DNA of 39,381 nucleotides from Shigella phage ESh6: the sequence record ON528719; one strand, written 5' to 3'. Every line of letters begins with the position of its first letter. Position 1 is the stretch's first letter. Positions 2,665-15,873 of this stretch are shown here, in pieces. Position numbers and translations under genes: made by a program. Below the pieces are notes generated by a model. It was not told the DNA's origin. It made no database searches and worked only from the letters and a program-made list of their open reading frames with translations.

Positions 2665-4425
2665 GTGTCTACTCAATCCAATCGTAATGCGCTCGTTGTG
2701 GCGCAACTGAAAGGTGACTTCGTGGCGTTCCTGTTCGTCTTATGGAAGGCGTTAAACCTTCCTGTACCTACTAAGTGCCAGATAGATATGGCTAAGGTAC
2801 TGGCGAACGGGGACAACAAGAAGTTCATCCTACAGGCTTTCCGTGGTATCGGTAAGTCGTTCATCACTTGTGCGTTCGTTGTGTGGTCCTTATGGCGGGA
2901 CCCTCAGTTGAAGATACTTATCGTATCAGCTTCTAAAGAACGTGCAGACGCTAACTCCATATTCATCAAGAACATCATTGACCTGCTACCGTTTCTCAGT
3001 GAGTTGAAGCCGAGACCCGGACAGCGTGACTCTGTGATTAGCTTTGATGTTGGTCCTGCTAGTCCTGACCACTCTCCTAGTGTGAAATCAGTAGGTATCA
3101 CTGGTCAGTTAACTGGTAGTCGTGCTGATATTATCATCGCGGATGACGTTGAGATTCCGTCTAACAGTGCGACTATGGGTGCCCGTGAGAAACTATGGAC
3201 TCTAGTTCAGGAGTTCGCTGCGCTTCTTAAACCTCTGCCTACATCTCGTGTTATCTACCTTGGTACTCCTCAGACTGAGATGACTCTGTATAAGGAGCTT
3301 GAGGATAACCGTGGGTATACGACTATTATCTGGCCTGCTCTGTACCCAAGGACTCGTGAGGAGAACCTCTACTACTCTCAACGTCTGGCACCAATGCTCC
3401 GTGCGGAGTACGAGGAGAATCCTGAGGCACTGGCTGGGACTCCTACAGACCCTGTTCGATTCGACCGAGACGACCTACGTGAGCGTGAGTTGGAATACGG
3501 TAAGGCTGGCTTTACGTTACAGTTCATGCTTAACCCGAACCTGAGTGATGCCGAGAAGTACCCTCTGAGGCTCCGTGACGCTATCATAGCGGCCTTAGAC
3601 TTAGAGAAGGCACCAATGCATTACCAATGGCTTCCGAACCGTCAGAACATCATTGAGGACCTTCCTAACGTTGGCCTTAAGGGTGATGACCTGTATACAT
3701 ACCACGACTGCTCCAACAACTCTGGTCAGTACCAACAGAAGATTCTGGTCATTGACCCTAGTGGTCGCGGTAAGGATGAAACAGGTTACGCTGTACTGTA
3801 CACCCTCAACGGTTACATCTACCTAATGGAAGCTGGAGGTTTCCGTGATGGTTACTCCGATAAGACCCTTGAGCTACTCGCTAAGAAGGCCAAGCAATGG
3901 GGAGTCCAGACGGTTGTCTACGAGAGTAACTTCGGTGACGGTATGTTTGGTAAGGTGTTCAGTCCTATCCTTCTTAAACACCACAACTGCGCTATGGAAG
4001 AGATTCGTGCTCGTGGTATGAAGGAGATGCGTATTTGTGATACCCTTGAGCCAGTCATGCAGACTCACCGCCTTGTCATTCGAGATGAGGTCATTCGGGC
4101 AGACTACCAGTCCGCTCGTGACGTAGACGGTAAGCATGACGTTAAGTACTCACTGTTCTACCAGATGACCCGTATCACCCGTGAGAAAGGTGCTCTGGCT
4201 CATGATGACCGATTGGATGCTCTTGCGCTAGGCGTTGAGTATCTCCGTGAGTCCATGAAATTGGATTCCGTTAAGGTAGAGGGTGAGGTACTTTCAGACT
4301 TCCTTGAGGAACACATGATGCGACCTACAGTGTCTGCTGCCCACATCATTGAGATGTCTGTAGGAGGAGTTGATGTGTACTCTGAGGACGATGAGGGATA
4401 CGGTACGTCTTTCATTGAGTGGTGA
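2665..4425 (+). CDS. 19: Terminase large subunit / DNA maturation protein B (gp19)
   Basis: 586-aa ORF, same length as T7 gp19 and near-identical from memory; GTG start at 2665 after 'aaggagg'; Walker A-like GIGKS. Confidence 0.95.
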
Positions 4426-4462: not shown

Positions 4463-4906
4463 ATGATAAACAAGAAGAAGTATGTTGTTGATAAGGAGAC
4501 TGGTTGCTGGAACTTTAAGGGATGCAAGACGAAGACTGGCTATGGTCGCATTCGTGTAAATGGAGTCCATTGGATGGCCCACAGGTATTCCCTGAGTTGT
4601 CATCTAGGCAGACCGATAGCTGACGGAATGGTTGTGATGCACCTGTGTGATAACCCTTCATGTGTTAACCCTGAGCACCTTAAGGAAGGGACTCAGAAGG
4701 AAAACATAGAGGACTGCATCTCAAAAGGTCGCGCAACTAAGGCCACAGGTAAACGTGATGCGTCTAAGAGAGACCCTAGCGAGGAACGTAAGGCTATAGT
4801 GATTCGTAGATACCATAAAGGCTGGACCGCAACGTCCATAGCGAGATACCATAAGCTCTCTGTGGCTTGGGTCAAGAGGACCATTGAGGAGTACCTAAGT
4901 GATTGA
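4463..4906 (+). CDS. HNH homing endonuclease (free-standing), inserted relative to T7
   Basis: 147-aa ORF with 'aaggagg' RBS. Cys/His-rich N-terminus and HNH core MHLCDNPSCVNPEHL; paralogous to the gene 7.7 ORF at 23823..24224. Confidence 0.8.
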   Translation: MINKKKYVVDKETGCWNFKGCKTKTGYGRIRVNGVHWMAHRYSLSCHLGRPIADGMVVMHLCDNPSCVNPEHLKEGTQKENIEDCISKGRATKATGKRDASKRDPSEERKAIVIRRYHKGWTATSIARYHKLSVAWVKRTIEEYLSD

Positions 4907-4957
4907 TATTTGAAATTAGTGATACAGGTCTAAGTATATGATTACAGACCATTATTC

Positions 4958-4980
4958 TAATTCGACTCACTATAGGGAGA
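4958..4980 (+). promoter_or_regulatory. T7 RNAP promoter phiOR (right-origin promoter)
   Basis: 'taattcgactcactatagggaga' matches the 23-bp T7 consensus except T at -13; lies between gene 19 and 19.5. Confidence 0.8.
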
Positions 4981-5066
4981 AGCCTACCTAAAGATTACTA
5001 TAAGACTTAAAGTGGCTATAAGGTAGGTTGTTATTATTAATACAACCAACATAAAGGAGGAGACTC

Positions 5067-5216
5067 ATGTTCCGCTTATTGTTGAACCTACTGCGGCATA
5101 GAGTCACCTATCGCTTTCTTGTGGTACTTTGTGCTGCCCTTGGGTACGCATCGCTTAGTGGAGACCTCGGTTCACTGGAGTCTACCGTTTGCTCTTTACT
5201 CACTTGTAGTGATTAA
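5067..5216 (+). CDS. 19.5: gp19.5 homolog (small hydrophobic protein)
   Basis: 49-codon ORF (below the ORF-track cutoff) after 'aaggagg'; MFRLLLNLLRHRVTYRFLVVLCAALGYASLSGDLGSLESTVCSLLTCSD matches T7 gp19.5 from memory. Confidence 0.7.
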   Translation: MFRLLLNLLRHRVTYRFLVVLCAALGYASLSGDLGSLESTVCSLLTCSD

Positions 5217-5289
5217 GGTCTTCCTGACCGACTGACGGCTCACCGAGGGATTCAGCGGTATGATTGCATCACACCACTTCATCCCTATA

Positions 5290-5790
5290 GAGTCAAGTCC
5301 TAAGGTATACCCATAAAGAGCCTCTAATGGTCTATCCTAAGGTCTATACCTAAAGATAGGCCATCCCATCGGTGATGCCTAAAGAGTTGCTTAGAGAGGG
5401 CCTAAGGAGTCCCTAGAGGGTCCTTTAAAATATACCATAAAAATCTGAGTGACTATCTCACAGTGTAAGCGCCCAAAGTTCCCCCCATAGGGGTCCCTAA
5501 AGTCACTCCTTTGGAGTGCCGGACCTTGAGGTGGCCTTGAGGTGGGGCCTGAGGTGGACCGAAGAGGGTCCTAATGTTACCGTTGGGAGTGTCTCCTTGT
5601 CCCTATCTGTTCAACCTCCTAAAGTCACCTCCTAAAGTTCACCATCAAGACAACACCAAAAGAATAACCTTAAAGACTCACCAAGTCAATCCCTATCTTA
5701 AAGTTTTCCCAAAGACCAGACCCAAAGACCAGACCCAAAGCTGCCCCGTTGTTACCTATAAAGAGATGACCAATAATCATTGTCTTTAAT
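5290..5790 (+). repeat. Short dispersed 'cctaaag / ccaaagaccaga' repeats typical of T7-type genome-end regions
   Basis: Multiple copies of ccTAAAG-like heptamers (e.g. 'cctcctaaagtcacctcctaaagttcacc') and tandem 'cccaaagaccagacccaaagaccagacccaaag'. Confidence 0.6.
5456..5615 (+). repeat. Direct terminal repeat, single collapsed copy; predicted physical genome left end at ~5456
   Basis: 'tctcacagtgta...gttccccccatagggg' matches the first bases of the T7 left end (recalled); the 240 bp between 19.5 and this point equals T7 spacing. Right boundary approximate. Confidence 0.5.
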
Positions 5791-5809
5791 TCGACTCACT
5801 ATAGAGAGA
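5787..5809 (+). promoter_or_regulatory. T7 RNAP promoter phiOL-like (left origin)
   Basis: 'taattcgactcactatagagaga': consensus -17 to +1 except T at -13, A at +2; located upstream of the host promoters as in T7. Confidence 0.7.
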
Positions 5810-5866
5810 GAGACTACTTAAAGAGGGCCAAAGAGAGAGATTAATCAAAATAATTTTAAAAGAGTG

Positions 5867-5895
5867 TTGACTTAAAGAGTCCTAGGGGATATTAT
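5867..5895 (+). promoter_or_regulatory. Host sigma70 early promoter A1
   Basis: -35 TTGACT (5867-5872), 17-bp spacer, -10 TATTAT (5890-5895); context 'aaaagagtgttgacttaaag' matches T7 A1. Confidence 0.7.
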
Positions 5896-5994
5896 TCATC
5901 TCGTCAACGGGACAACGGCCTAAAAGCCACTCCCTGAGATACCGGGGTCAACCGGATAAGTAGACAGCCTGATAAGTCATACGAAAAACAGGCA

Positions 5995-6024
5995 TTGACA
6001 ACACGAAGTAACATGCAGTAAGAT
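5995..6024 (+). promoter_or_regulatory. Host sigma70 early promoter A2
   Basis: -35 TTGACA (5995-6000), 18-bp spacer, -10 TAAGAT (6019-6024); near-identical to T7 A2. Confidence 0.75.
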
Positions 6025-6100
6025 ACACAGCGTCAACATGGTAGCACGGTGTCTTCTAGGTGACTTAAGCGCACCACGGCACACAAAGCGAAACAAACGG

Positions 6101-6129
6101 TTGACAACATGCAGTAAACACGGTACGAT
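6101..6129 (+). promoter_or_regulatory. Host sigma70 early promoter A3
   Basis: -35 TTGACA (6101-6106), 17-bp spacer, -10 TACGAT (6124-6129); near-identical to T7 A3. Confidence 0.75.
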
Positions 6130-6247
6130 GTACCGCAAGTAGTAAGGGTGTAGGGATAGGAACCGAGAAACCTGCCCGTGACCCGCCAAGGATAAGGCAC
6201 TAGCCATGAGTCGAATTCGGTCACTCATCGCATAAAAGAATAACAGG

Positions 6248-6276
6248 TTGACAGCCTCCTTTAAAAGCTGTAAGAT
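6248..6276 (+). promoter_or_regulatory. Additional sigma70-type promoter (fourth early promoter; not in canonical T7)
   Basis: -35 TTGACA (6248-6253), 17-bp spacer, -10 TAAGAT (6271-6276); sits on ~170 bp of extra sequence between A3 and the R0.3 hairpin. Confidence 0.5.
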
Positions 6277-6299
6277 GTACCACGAAATGACGGAACAGT

Positions 6300-6345
6300 G
6301 AGTCACCACACTGAAAGGTGATGCGGTCTAACGAAACCTGACCAA
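6300..6345 (+). other. RNase III site R0.3-like hairpin
   Basis: 'gagtcaccacactgaaaggtgatgcggtctaacgaaacctgacc' (tcacc/ggtga stem), identical to the T7 R0.3 region from memory. Confidence 0.55.
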
Positions 6346-6463
6346 AGACGCTCTTTAACAATCTGGTAAACGGCTCTTGAGTGTACACACGTAGCGGATA
6401 ACTCAAGGGTATCGCAAGATGCCCTTTATGATATCCACTAACAACACTATGAGGTAACACACA

Positions 6464-6826
6464 ATGGCTATGTCTAACATGACTTATAACAACGTTTTCG
6501 ATCACGCTTACGAAATGCTGAAAGAAAACATCCGTTATGATGACATCCGTGACGCTGATGATCTGCACGATGCAGTGCATATGGCAGCTGATAATGCCGT
6601 TCCGCACTATTACAGCGACATTTTCAGCGTAATGGCAAGCGAGGGCATTGACCTTGAGTTCGAAGACTCTGGTCTGATGCCGGACACCAAGGACGTAATC
6701 CGTATCCTGCAAGCACGTATCTATGAGCAATTAACGATCGACCTTTGGGAAGACGCTGAAGATTTGCTGAACGAGTATCTTGAGGAAGTCGAAGAGTCTG
6801 AAGAGTACGAAGAGGGTGAAGAGTAA
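6464..6826 (+). CDS. 0.3: Ocr, DNA-mimic anti-restriction protein (gp0.3)
   Basis: 120-aa ORF; [30 protein letters not shown]... near-identical to T7 Ocr; highly acidic C-terminus. Confidence 0.92.
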
Positions 6827-8484: not shown

Positions 8485-11136
8485 ATGAGTACGATTAACA
8501 TCGCTAAGAACGATTTCTCTGACATCGAACTGGCTGCTATCCCGTTCAACACTCTGGCTGACCACTATGGTGAGCGTCTAGCTCGCGAGCAGTTGGCCCT
8601 TGAGCATGAGTCTTACGAGATGGGAGAAGCACGTTTCCGCAAGATGTTTGAGCGTCAACTTAAGGCTGGCGAGGTTGCAGATAATGCGGCTGCTAAACCG
8701 CTGATTACTACTCTGCTGCCTAAGATGGTTGCACGCATCAACGACTGGTTTGAGGAAGTGAAAGCTAAGCGCGGCAAACGTCCAACCGCTTTCCAGTTCC
8801 TGCAAGAAATCAAGCCGGAATCTGTAGCGTATATCACCATTAAGACTACTCTTGCTTGCCTAACGAGCGTGGACAATACAACCGTTCAGGCTGTAGCGAG
8901 CGCCATAGGACGGGCTATCGAGGAAGAAGCTCGCTTCGGTCGAATCCGTGACCTAGAAGCTAAGCACTTCAAGAAAAACGTTGAGGAACAACTAAACAAG
9001 CGCGTAGGGCACGTCTATAAGAAGGCATTCATGCAGGTAGTCGAGGCTGACATGCTCTCTAAGGGTCTACTCGGTGGCGAGGCGTGGTCTTCATGGCACA
9101 AGGAAGACTCCATTCACGTAGGTGTGCGCTGCATTGAGATGCTCATCGAGTCCACCGGAATGGTTAGCTTGCACCGCCAAAATGCTGGCGTAGTGGGCCA
9201 AGACTCTGAGACTATCGAACTCGCACCGGAATACGCTGAGGCTATCGCAACACGGGCTGGGGCACTGGCTGGTATCTCTCCTATGTATCAGCCTTGCATA
9301 GTACCGCCTAAACCTTGGACTGGTGTCACTGGTGGTGGATACTGGGCTAACGGTCGCCGTCCGCTGGTACTGGTACGCACCCACAGCAAGAAGGCACTGA
9401 TGCGCTACGAAGATGTTTACATGCCTGAGGTATACAAGGCGATCAACATTGCGCAAAACACCGCTTGGAAAATCAACAAGAAAGTCCTAGCGGTCGCCAA
9501 CGTGATTACCAAGTGGAAGCACTGCCCAGTCGAGGACATCCCTTCGATTGAGCGCGAAGAACTCCCGATGAAACCGGAAGACATCGACACGAATCCAGAG
9601 GCGCTGACCGCTTGGAAACGTGCTGCTGCCGCTGTGTATCGTAAGGACAAGGCACGTAAGTCTCGCCGCATAAGCCTTGAGTTCATGCTTGAGCAAGCCA
9701 ATAAGTTTGCTAACCGTAAGGCCATCTGGTTCCCTTACAACATGGACTGGCGCGGTCGCGTGTACGCTGTGTCAATGTTCAATCCGCAAGGTAACGACAT
9801 GACCAAAGGACTACTGACGCTGGCTAAAGGTAAGCCAATCGGCAAGGAAGGATTCTACTGGCTGAAAATTCACGGAGCTAACTGCGCGGGAGTTGATAAG
9901 GTTCCATTCCCTGAGCGCATCAAGTTCATCGAGGATAACCACGATAACATCATGGCGTGCGCTAAGTCCCCACTGGAGAACACTTGGTGGGCTGAACAAG
10001 ATTCTCCGTTCTGCTTCCTCGCGTTCTGCTTTGAGTACGCTGGGGTACAGCACCACGGCCTGAGCTACAACTGCTCGCTGCCGCTGGCGTTCGATGGGTC
10101 TTGCTCTGGCATTCAGCACTTCTCCGCGATGCTCCGCGATGAGGTAGGCGGTCGGGCTGTTAACCTGCTGCCTAGTGAAACCGTTCAAGACATCTATGGG
10201 ATTGTTGCTAAGAAAGTCAACGAGATTCTGCAAGCGGATGCAATCAACGGGACCGATAACGAAGTAGTTACCGTGACCGATGAGAACACTGGAGAAATCT
10301 CTGAGAAAATCAAGCTGGGTACTAAAGCACTGGCTGGTCAATGGCTTGCCTACGGTGTGACCCGTAGCGTCACTAAACGTTCAGTCATGACGCTGGCGTA
10401 TGGTTCCAAAGAGTTCGGATTCCGTCAGCAAGTCCTTGAGGACACCATACAGCCAGCCATTGATTCCGGCAAAGGTCTGATGTTCACCCAACCTAATCAG
10501 GCCGCTGGGTATATGGCTAAGCTGATTTGGGAGTCAGTGAGCGTTACCGTAGTGGCTGCTGTAGAGGCTATGAACTGGCTTAAGTCTGCTGCGAAGCTGC
10601 TGGCTGCTGAGGTCAAAGACAAGAAGACTGGGGAGATTCTTCGTAAACGCTGTGCGGTGTATTGGGTAACTCCTGATGGCTTCCCTGTGTGGCAAGAATA
10701 CAAGAAGCCAATTCAGACTCGCTTGAACTTGATGTTCCTCGGTCAGTTCCGCCTACAGCCGACAATCAACACCAACAAGGACAGCGAGATTGATGCCCAT
10801 AAGCAGGAATCTGGTATAGCTCCTAACTTTGTACACAGCCAAGACGGTAGCCACCTACGTAAGACTGTAGTGTGGGCGCATGAGAAGTACGGAATCGAAT
10901 CTTTCGCACTGATTCATGACTCCTTCGGGACCATTCCGGCTGACGCTGCCAACCTCTTCAAAGCTGTTCGTGAAACGATGGTTGACACCTACGAGTCATG
11001 CGATGTGCTTGCAGACTTCTACAACCAGTTCGCGGACCAGTTACATGAGTCTCAACTGGATAAAATGCCAGCACTTCCGGCTAAAGGTAACTTGAATTTA
11101 CGAGACATCTTAGAGTCAGACTTCGCGTTTGCGTGA
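8485..11136 (+). CDS. 1: T7-type single-subunit DNA-dependent RNA polymerase
   Basis: 883-aa ORF, same length as T7 RNAP and near-identical throughout; specificity-loop region RLQPTINTNKDSEIDAHKQ conserved, consistent with T7-type promoters. Confidence 0.98.
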   Translation: MSTINIAKNDFSDIELAAIPFNTLADHYGERLAREQLALEHESYEMGEARFRKMFERQLKAGEVADNAAAKPLITTLLPKMVARINDWFEEVKAKRGKRPTAFQFLQEIKPESVAYITIKTTLACLTSVDNTTVQAVASAIGRAIEEEARFGRIRDLEAKHFKKNVEEQLNKRVGHVYKKAFMQVVEADMLSKGLLGGEAWSSWHKEDSIHVGVRCIEMLIESTGMVSLHRQNAGVVGQDSETIELAPEYAEAIATRAGALAGISPMYQPCIVPPKPWTGVTGGGYWANGRRPLVLVRTHSKKALMRYEDVYMPEVYKAINIAQNTAWKINKKVLAVANVITKWKHCPVEDIPSIEREELPMKPEDIDTNPEALTAWKRAAAAVYRKDKARKSRRISLEFMLEQANKFANRKAIWFPYNMDWRGRVYAVSMFNPQGNDMTKGLLTLAKGKPIGKEGFYWLKIHGANCAGVDKVPFPERIKFIEDNHDNIMACAKSPLENTWWAEQDSPFCFLAFCFEYAGVQHHGLSYNCSLPLAFDGSCSGIQHFSAMLRDEVGGRAVNLLPSETVQDIYGIVAKKVNEILQADAINGTDNEVVTVTDENTGEISEKIKLGTKALAGQWLAYGVTRSVTKRSVMTLAYGSKEFGFRQQVLEDTIQPAIDSGKGLMFTQPNQAAGYMAKLIWESVSVTVVAAVEAMNWLKSAAKLLAAEVKDKKTGEILRKRCAVYWVTPDGFPVWQEYKKPIQTRLNLMFLGQFRLQPTINTNKDSEIDAHKQESGIAPNFVHSQDGSHLRKTVVWAHEKYGIESFALIHDSFGTIPADAANLFKAVRETMVDTYESCDVLADFYNQFADQLHESQLDKMPALPAKGNLNLRDILESDFAFA

Positions 11137-14556: not shown

Positions 14557-15012
14557 GTGGCTGGCGCATACGCTGCGCGTGGTATCAGAAAGGTCGGGAC
14601 ATTCCGTTCCGGCCTAGAAGATAAGGTCTCTAAGCAGCTAGAGGGTAAGGGCATTAAGTTCGACTATGAACTGTGGAAAATCCCTTACGTTGTCCCTGCG
14701 AGTAACCATGTCTACACTCCAGACTTCCTGCTGCCTAACGGAATCTTTATTGAAACCAAAGGTTTATGGGAGAGTGACGACCGAAAGAAACACTTACTGA
14801 TTCGCGAACAGTTTCCAGAACTGGACATCCGTCTGGTATTTTCTAGCTCACGTACCAAGCTGTATAAAGGGTCTCCGACCAGTTACGGCGAATGGTGTGA
14901 GAAGCACGGTATTCTGTTTGCTGACAAATTAGTTCCTATAGAATGGCTCAAAGAACCTAAAAAGGAGGTGCCATTTGACAAGCTGAAACAATCGAAGGGA
15001 GGAAAGAAATAA
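14557..15012 (+). CDS. 3: Endonuclease I, Holliday-junction resolvase (gp3)
   Basis: 151-aa ORF with GTG start; ...GIRKVG.FRSGLEDKVSKQLE.KGIKF...PDFLLPNGIF.ETKGLWESDDRKKHLLIREQ matches T7 gp3. Confidence 0.9.
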   Translation: MAGAYAARGIRKVGTFRSGLEDKVSKQLEGKGIKFDYELWKIPYVVPASNHVYTPDFLLPNGIFIETKGLWESDDRKKHLLIREQFPELDIRLVFSSSRTKLYKGSPTSYGEWCEKHGILFADKLVPIEWLKEPKKEVPFDKLKQSKGGKK

Positions 15013-15467
15013 TGGCTCGTGTACAGTTTAAACAACGTGAATCTACTGACGCAATCTTTGTTCACTGCTCGGCTACCAAGCCAAGTCAGAATGTGGGTGT
15101 CCGTGAGATTCGCCAGTGGCATAAAGAGCAAGGTTGGCTTGATGTGGGGTATCACTTTATCATCAAGCGTGATGGTACTGTAGAGGAAGGCCGAGATGAG
15201 ATGGCTGTAGGTTCTCACGCTAAGGGCCACAACCACAACTCTATTGGTGTCTGCCTTGTTGGTGGAATTGACGATAAAGGTAAGTTCGACGCTAACTTTA
15301 CGCCAGCCCAAATGCAATCCCTTCGCTCACTGCTTGTCACACTGCTGGCTAAGTATGAAGGCGCTGTACTTCGCGCGCATCATGAGGTCGCGCCGAAGGC
15401 ATGTCCTAGTTTCAACCTGAAACGCTGGTGGGAGGAGAATGAACTGGTTACGTCTGACCATGAGTAA
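15012..15467 (+). CDS. 3.5: Lysozyme, N-acetylmuramoyl-L-alanine amidase; also RNAP inhibitor (gp3.5)
   Basis: 151-aa ORF near-identical to T7 lysozyme (MARVQFKQRESTDAIFVHCSATKPSQNVGVREIRQWH...). Confidence 0.95.
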   Translation: MARVQFKQRESTDAIFVHCSATKPSQNVGVREIRQWHKEQGWLDVGYHFIIKRDGTVEEGRDEMAVGSHAKGHNHNSIGVCLVGGIDDKGKFDANFTPAQMQSLRSLLVTLLAKYEGAVLRAHHEVAPKACPSFNLKRWWEENELVTSDHE

Positions 15468-15873
15468 TTTACGCATAGACCCGTCAAGTCCTTCCGGTAT
15501 CTCCAAAGGTGATAAACCTATTGGGTGGATTCACAAAGGAAGATATTGGAGGATGCGGATAAACGGTAAAGCAGTGATGTGCCATGTGGTGATAATGGAA
15601 CTAAAAACAGGAGAACCGATTCCAGAAGGACTGGAAGTTGACCACATAAACAGGAACGGGTTGGACAATTCAATTGGGAACCTTCGCCTAGTTGACCGCC
15701 AAACCAATGTCTGTAATACCGGATGTCGTAAGGACTCAAAGACAGGGGTTAAGGGTGTTAGCTATCGAGAAGGTAGACTCAAGCCTTATTCCGCACACAA
15801 ACAGCGTAATGGTATTCGAAAGTGTAAATCTTTCGAGACTATTGAGGAAGCTGTAAAGTGGCTCGATAATTAA
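15460..15873 (+). CDS. 3.8: HNH endonuclease with AP2-like DNA-binding domain, at the gene 3.8 position
   Basis: ORF track 15439..15873; likely start ATG 15460. HNH motif EVDHINRNGLDNSIGNLRLVDRQTN and AP2-like GVKGVSYREGRLKPYSAHKQRNG. Not orthologous to recalled T7 gp3.8. Confidence 0.72.
   Translation: MSNLRIDPSSPSGISKGDKPIGWIHKGRYWRMRINGKAVMCHVVIMELKTGEPIPEGLEVDHINRNGLDNSIGNLRLVDRQTNVCNTGCRKDSKTGVKGVSYREGRLKPYSAHKQRNGIRKCKSFETIEEAVKWLDN

Follow-up and report, generated by a model that had tools for sequence, protein, structure and literature searches.

The processing of T7 DNA at the concatemer junction, with its class II pause site and its cutting by terminase, is textbook biology, and the junction described here is an ordinary case of it. 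In PMC9860248 and PMC3276506, the whole concatemer junction is reported to be required, with PacB and PacC recognised by gp18/gp19 and with a pause of the RNA polymerase at the right edge of the junction. The packaging signal is made up of PacB, the part recognised by gp18, and PacC, where gp19 cuts (PMC9860248, citing Chung and Hinkle 1990, Tsuchida 1996, Fujisawa and Morita 1997), and maturation and packaging are started at the junction through an interaction with gp18/gp19 (PMC3276506, citing Zhang and Studier 2004). Only for T7 is it known that the RNA polymerase pauses at the CJ site and that the junction suffices for the packaging of a plasmid (PMC3276506, PMC13236587). The class II signal itself, ATCTGTT, is strictly sequence-specific, with termination or pausing 6–8 nt downstream (10.1101/2021.01.11.426313), and needs A, C or T immediately before it (10.64898/2026.02.12.705533). 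The second copy of the terminal repeat (TR) is synthesised during maturation, and short-read assemblers usually collapse the direct terminal repeats of T7-like genomes into a single copy (PMC10438801).

A T7-like genome closed to a circle

The window, by which the whole stretch of DNA analysed is meant (39,381 bp), is a complete T7-like (Teseptimavirus) genome with about 92% identity to its nearest relatives in GenBank; over a stretch of 24.6 kb it shows 91–93% identity to ESh2, PHB20, IME390, EG1, HZ2R8 and Yanou, the nearest GenBank phages, and the order of its genes, including those for the small and large subunits of the terminase and gene 19.5, is that of T7. When the last 1,500 and the first 1,200 bases of the window are joined, an unbroken alignment to Cedecea phage Yanou (33774–35446) is obtained, and the join is seamless, falling within a 611-codon open frame (the tail-fibre gene) that is colinear with Yanou; the window is therefore the whole genome closed to a circle and opened inside gene 17. 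The genes and promoters around the junction are the following.

1850–2119, + strand: homologue of gene 18, the terminase small subunit, 89 aa (PHROG 1351, E 9e-41), colinear with Yanou ORF50
2665–4425, + strand: homologue of gene 19, the terminase large subunit, 586 aa (PHROG 38, E 1e-134)
4463–4906, no strand given: HNH endonuclease gene, 147 aa (PHROG 6254), between gene 19 and phiOR
4958–4980, + strand: phiOR-type promoter (TAATTCGACTCACTATAGGGAGA), pointing rightwards, into gene 19.5 and then the TR, at the position of phiOR in T7 and Yersinia phage Y
5067–5216, + strand: final gene of the genome, 49 aa (PHROG 2193, E 1e-24), a homologue of gene 19.5, which is annotated at this position in T7, phage Y and HZP2 too
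5661–5689, - strand: counterpart of A0, a leftward sigma-70-type promoter (TTGACT-17-TATTCT), with A0 annotated equivalently in T7 and phage Y
5787–5809, + strand: phiOL-type promoter (TAATTCGACTCACTATAGAGAGA), placed as phiOL is in T7 and in phage Y

Matches to the T7-type promoter number 11 in the window and none in shuffled sequences, and two of them, phiOR before gene 19.5 and phiOL, flank the junction. Both share the variant TAATTCGACTCAC, with T and not A as the fifth base, and the five promoters of perfect consensus elsewhere in the genome read TAATACGACTCAC. Near the junction there are also four strong rightward promoters of the sigma-70 type. The fourth of these early promoters (TTGACA-17-TAAGAT, 6248–6276) lies in a segment of 160 bp (6135–6294, after A3) that T7 and Yanou do not have, an insertion that is ordinary among the relatives since it is common to at least 30 records (at least 80% query cover, 97–99% identity). 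The cognate gp18/gp19 terminase is found in one genome with a single-subunit RNA polymerase (an 883-aa open frame at 8485–11136, colinear with the RNA polymerase gene of Yanou) and a lysozyme (the stretch 15011–15469, colinear with the endolysin gene of Yanou).

Some features of the surrounding genes stand apart from the junction itself. The HNH gene between gene 19 and phiOR probably encodes a homing endonuclease beside the terminase; Yanou and YpYeO9 have it too, N30 carries an unnamed gene at this location, and the annotation of T7 shows none there. The distal part of the tail-fibre gene (174–975) has no nucleotide match to Yanou, although its flanks do match, which suggests a swapped receptor-binding module; after the tail-fibre gene follows a tail-fibre assembly gene (1060–1587, 175 aa, PHROG 136), and Yanou has one too. 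An open frame at 5574–5789 (71 aa), which overlaps the edge of the TR and the adjoining arrays, was considered as a gene and rejected, having no PHROG match and lying in DNA with a variable copy number of repeats. A scan of 4800–6600 against Rfam revealed no known RNA family, the single match (MIR815, E 0.16) being at chance level and far below the gathering threshold.

Predicted boundaries of the terminal repeat

The region 5217–5800 aligns nucleotide by nucleotide to the right end followed by the left end of those relatives whose records carry both TRs, and a comparison of the window with itself by blast shows the TR once; the region thus holds one collapsed copy of the TR together with both predicted cut sites. 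The parts of the junction are given below, with the proportion of invariant columns in an alignment of ten junctions (the window, T7, EG1, phiA1122, Yanou, NC-A, YpYeO9, N30, AH67C600_Q5 and HZP2).

5217–5415, + strand: non-coding right-end block with CCTAAAG/CCTAAGG heptamers, the counterpart of the right-hand array of T7; 85% invariant
5416–5455, + strand: near-invariant 40 bp to the left of the TR; 97% invariant, that is, 39 of 40 columns, the last 30 bases being identical in six relatives
5456–5604, no strand given: the terminal repeat in one collapsed copy, with a predicted length of 149 bp (±1, at its right edge) and GTCCCT as its last bases; 72% invariant over its first 45 bases, 22% in the middle and 62% over its last 20 bases
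5605–5611, + strand: ATCTGTT, class II pause/termination signal of the T7-type RNA polymerase (CJ site); 100% invariant
5612–5760, + strand: left-end heptamer arrays, the counterpart of the left-hand array of T7, with a copy number that differs between relatives; 32% invariant

The best explanation of these data, and one that we hold to be very probable, is that 5217–5800 represents, within an assembly closed to a circle, the concatemer junction of a T7-like phage, with ends that can be predicted by homology, and that the assembler merged both copies of the TR and linearised the circle within gene 17. An earlier note on this DNA had taken the region for the genome end, with one collapsed copy of the repeat and the predicted packaging junction, and both the two-ended records of the relatives and the single copy in the window support that reading. 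Every sequence feature of a T7-type junction that could be looked for was found here, and the order is the one of T7: phiOR, gene 19.5, heptamer array, repeat, CJ pause, heptamer array, A0, phiOL and A1–A3. The record of phage Y carries the same layout as annotation (phiOR, gene 19.5, TR, CJ terminator, A0 and phiOL), with the CJ terminator at the place of ATCTGTT in the window.

At the left edge (5456–5467, + strand) lies the only occurrence in the window of the 12-mer TCTCACAGTGTA, with which the T7 record (NC_001604) begins. Taken alone this 12-mer is weak evidence, since a match with at most one mismatch was found in 29 of 100 shuffles; nevertheless, the match of the left end is settled by the 30 bases upstream of 5456 (TAAAATATACCATAAAAATCTGAGTGACTA), which agree without exception with the bases that precede the right-hand TR in each of the six two-ended relatives (T7, EG1, phiA1122, Yanou, NC-A and YpYeO9). 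The claim of the earlier note that the sequence starting at 5456 matches the first bases of T7 virion DNA is thereby confirmed. The TR starts with TCTCACAG in each of the six two-ended relatives, its opening bases are the first bases of their records and of that of N30, and at least 14 GenBank records of relatives start exactly at the base matching 5456; in the window, TCTCACAG comes after the conserved block that ends in AAAATCTGAGTGACTA. The left cut is accordingly placed, as a prediction, between 5455 and 5456. Two more distant phages from IMG/VR (L023 and L028, of 40,142 and 38,368 bp) show the exact 24-base boundary, AAAATCTGAGTGACTA followed by TCTCACAG, and TR interiors that are entirely different, which indicates that the context of the left cut site is conserved beyond the close relatives of T7 examined.

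At the right edge, the lengths of the TRs in the relatives were taken as the exact overlap of the first and last bases in the records that carry both ends (n = 6), and are as follows.

T7: 160 bp, from the record ends
Yanou: 159 bp, from the record ends and the annotation
NC-A: 158 bp, from the record ends
EG1: 149 bp, from the record ends
phiA1122: 148 bp, from the record ends and the annotation
YpYeO9: 148 bp, from the record ends

In five of the six (T7, phiA1122, Yanou, NC-A and YpYeO9) the TR ends in GTCCC(C)T directly before ATCTGTT, and the record of N30 likewise has GTCCCT at its right end. The window reads GTCCCT immediately followed by ATCTGTT at 5604/5605, so that the signal is preceded by T, and this copy of ATCTGTT is the only one on the + (transcribed) strand of the whole window. 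By homology with the ends of the relatives, the TR is thus predicted to span 5456–5604, that is, 149 bp (±1), with the right cut between 5604 and 5605, and the virion DNA, given the single copy in the window, is predicted to be of about 39,381 + 149 = 39,530 bp. It had been stated in the earlier note that the length of the repeat cannot be read from one copy; this is strictly true, but the comparison with two-ended relatives supplies the length. Exact-protein searches with the products of gene 19 and gene 19.5, aimed at other assemblies that may be broken at the physical ends, gave no match, and the HNH protein led to a single contig of 2.6 kb that was uninformative.

A genome-end junction with TR boundaries other than those predicted, either with the right end at 5605 as in EG1 or with a longer or shorter repeat in view of the non-T7 interior, appears quite improbable. 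The record of EG1, in which 149 bases are common to the two ends and the last of them read CCCTA, one base past the T7-type boundary, speaks for it, being the sole record of the EG1 type with both ends, as do the TR lengths of 138 to 174 found among the relatives. Nevertheless, it is indels inside the TR, with the boundaries unshifted, that account for the differences in length in every relative, GTCCC(C)T is the end in the record of N30 and in five of the six with two exact copies, and the boundary motifs are invariant, all of which favors the predicted 149 bp.

Just after the TR, Escherichia phage CICC 80001 reads CCCCTACCTGTT, compared with CCCTATCTGTT in all the others, and so has ACCTGTT for ATCTGTT. 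This T-to-C change would break the class II signal, and reflects either a sequencing error in the record or a phage that has no need of it, in which case the pause signal may be dispensable.

The conservation of the junction is highest next to the left edge of the TR. The 239 bp of non-coding DNA to the left of it (5217–5455) show 95–97.5% identity to T7, Yanou and EG1 (95% in the case of T7), compared with 92–94% for the last 1,500 nt of gene 19 (2926–4425) against the same three phages, and a conservation above that of the adjacent terminase gene points to strong selection on a cis-acting element. From this conservation, the near-invariant 5416–5455 is a candidate for the recognition and cleavage context of the terminase, similar to PacB/PacC, which may perhaps extend to the wider block 5217–5455. 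The same data bear on the possibility that the phage packages by the headful, without fixed ends, and that the T7-like junction is a relic, the circular assembly then reflecting a true circular permutation. The assembly does close into a circle, as for headful phages; nevertheless, the blocks of the junction are conserved above the neighbouring genes, the terminase is a gp18/gp19 pair of the T7 type, all the characterised relatives have exact short terminal repeats, and short-read assemblers routinely collapse such repeats (PMC10438801), so that headful packaging is extremely unlikely here.

If the concatemer junction of this phage works as in T7 and T3, replication would yield head-to-tail concatemers in which adjacent genomes share one TR, and the transcript from phiOR (4958) would cross gene 19.5 and the TR and meet ATCTGTT only in the concatemer, where the complex of polymerase and lysozyme would pause a few bases downstream of the signal. 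Judging from this layout, in which the transcript can reach ATCTGTT only through a junction of right and left ends, the signal would report the concatemeric state of the DNA. The gene 18 product (small terminase) may then recognise the conserved block to the left of the TR, the gene 19 product (large terminase) would cut sequence-specifically at 5455/5456 and 5604/5605, and the TR would be copied by DNA synthesis, leaving it at both ends of each virion DNA.

Heptamer arrays on both sides of the repeat

Heptamers of the CCTAAAG type form strand-specific arrays on both sides of the TR. Exact CCTAAAG occurs 14 times in the window, compared with 4.3 ± 1.9 expected, and six of the 14 lie within 4987–5637; with up to one mismatch, 5217–5800 contains 19 copies on the + strand, compared with 2.1 ± 1.3 in dinucleotide shuffles, and two on the - strand, and the density of the type in this region is 12 times that in the rest of the genome. 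The cctaaag-type repeats to which the earlier note had drawn attention are therefore real, and its cccaaagaccaga tandem was located at 5708–5740, with a period of 13, 2.5 copies and a match of 100%. Further tandems of period 13 lie at 5609–5643, also in the left-end arrays, and, as detected by Tandem Repeats Finder, at 5324–5353 in the right-end block. After the CJ site, units of TCCTCCTAAAGT are fewer in the window than in T7.

The statement, from the same source, that these arrays and tandems are implicated in concatemer processing in T7 could not be documented from the literature available, which documents a requirement for the junction as a whole, PacB/PacC and the polymerase pause; the copy numbers of the arrays vary freely among relatives. 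The period of about 13 bp and the strand bias of the arrays would fit phased protein binding or bending of the DNA, and the variable copy number argues against a strict requirement. In the alternative case, the flanking arrays and the tandems of the TR would be unrelated to packaging, either as slippage-prone filler or with a function in genome entry or early transcription, and only the invariant blocks at the edges of the TR would be packaging signals; this is a serious possibility, though one towards which we do not lean. In T7 the leftmost ~850 bp, which are non-coding, form the leader: they are the first DNA to enter the cell and contain the promoters A0–A3. The arrays to the right of the TR are poorly conserved and vary in copy number even among close relatives, WX1 is without a whole unit of the tandem inside the TR, and promoters of the sigma-70 type lie within and beside the arrays, which would all agree with this alternative. 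Nevertheless, the heptamers are strongly strand-specific and enriched, they recur every 13 bp or so to the left and to the right of the TR, and those to its left lie in a block conserved above coding DNA. Taken together, strand bias, enrichment, period and right-end conservation point to some selected role of the heptamers, at least on the right-end side.

Interior of the repeat and its palindromes

In contrast to its edges, the interior of the TR exists in two mutually unalignable types, and the window has the rarer one, shared with EG1, AH67C600_Q5, HZP2 and WX1/WX2. Its elements are the following.

5481–5493, no strand given: small palindrome cccc-ata-gggg, present in all Teseptimavirus TRs examined, a predicted hairpin in the DNA fold
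5504–5518, no strand given: palindrome cactcc-ttt-ggagtg, found in the EG1-type interior only (window, EG1, HZP2, AH67C600_Q5 and WX1)
5520–5567, + strand: four degenerate units of 11–13 nt (of the ..CCTTGAGG type), including a triple tandem and an extra degenerate unit at 5520–5531

The triple tandem ggtggccttgagg/tggggcctgagg/tggaccgaagagg, which the earlier note had placed at 5541–5580, is present letter for letter, but at 5530–5567, the start given having been 11 bases too high; Tandem Repeats Finder reports a repeat at 5524–5557 with a period of 11–12 and three copies. In WX1 one 12-nt unit of this tandem is absent, so that its copy number varies, and the TRs of the EG1 type range from 138 to 150 bp through gain and loss of units of 11–12 nt.

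Compared with T7, the window agrees in the first 12 bases of the TR, in the 30-base flank and in GTCCCT before ATCTGTT at the right boundary, and differs in the length of the TR (149 versus 160 bp), in the units of the CCTTGAGG type and in the interior (approximately 5500–5585), which cannot be aligned with that of T7, where the CCCAGCCAATCACCTAAAGTCAACCTTCGGTTGA segment stands in place of the one with the palindrome cactcctttggagtg. The TRs closest to that of the window are those of AH67C600_Q5, HZP2 and EG1, with 93, 92 and 90% identity, respectively. EG1 (MG488277), AH67C600_Q5, HZP2 and the Yersinia phages WX1/WX2 share with the window the interior type, the palindrome and the boundary motifs, at a TR identity of 88–93%, and differ from it in TR length through the tandem indels, in the end of EG1 one base later and in a genome-wide identity of about 92%. 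Yersinia phage phiA1122 (148 bp) and Cedecea phage Yanou (159 bp), both with annotated TRs, have the same start and end motifs as the window but an interior of the T7 type.

In the stretch of the alignment that corresponds to 5504–5518, the TRs of the T7 type carry a palindrome unrelated to that of the window, GTCAACC-TTC-GGTTGAC (T7 65–81). Across its eight distinct variants, 96% of cells pair, compensatory double changes are seen at two of the pairs, and the loop reads either TTC or the complementary GAA. Its covariation scores 0.189, compared with 0.107 in shuffles, six of 500 of which reach the observed value; given the small sample of related sequences, this covariation should be regarded as no more than a lead. 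At the place of cccc-ata-gggg, the more distant L028 has another palindrome, CACCCA TAT TGGGTG. A scan of IMG/VR for the EG1-type palindrome returned EG1 and HZP2 only, and none was found in JGI metagenomes, so that these scans added nothing on the position of the ends. A large DNA structure in 5416–5640 was rejected, the single-strand DNA fold being no more stable than shuffles (z 0.59), which leaves the small palindromes only.

It is conceivable from these patterns, although in our judgment unlikely, that the interior of the TR is freely replaceable except for a short hairpin-capable palindrome at the corresponding place.

In summary, since both boundaries of the TR lie in invariant motifs, the length of the repeat in a T7-like phage can be predicted from one collapsed copy; in practice, the genome can be re-oriented to start at 5456 and a second copy of 5456–5604 appended, which would give the virion DNA of about 39,530 bp. 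Of mild interest is the combination of invariant TR edges with a swappable interior that still keeps a palindrome. If a palindrome were indeed required, this would suggest that a hairpin or cruciform intermediate of the DNA, or else a site for a dimeric protein, takes part in the duplication of the repeat or in its processing by terminase, a step of T7 maturation that is still poorly understood.
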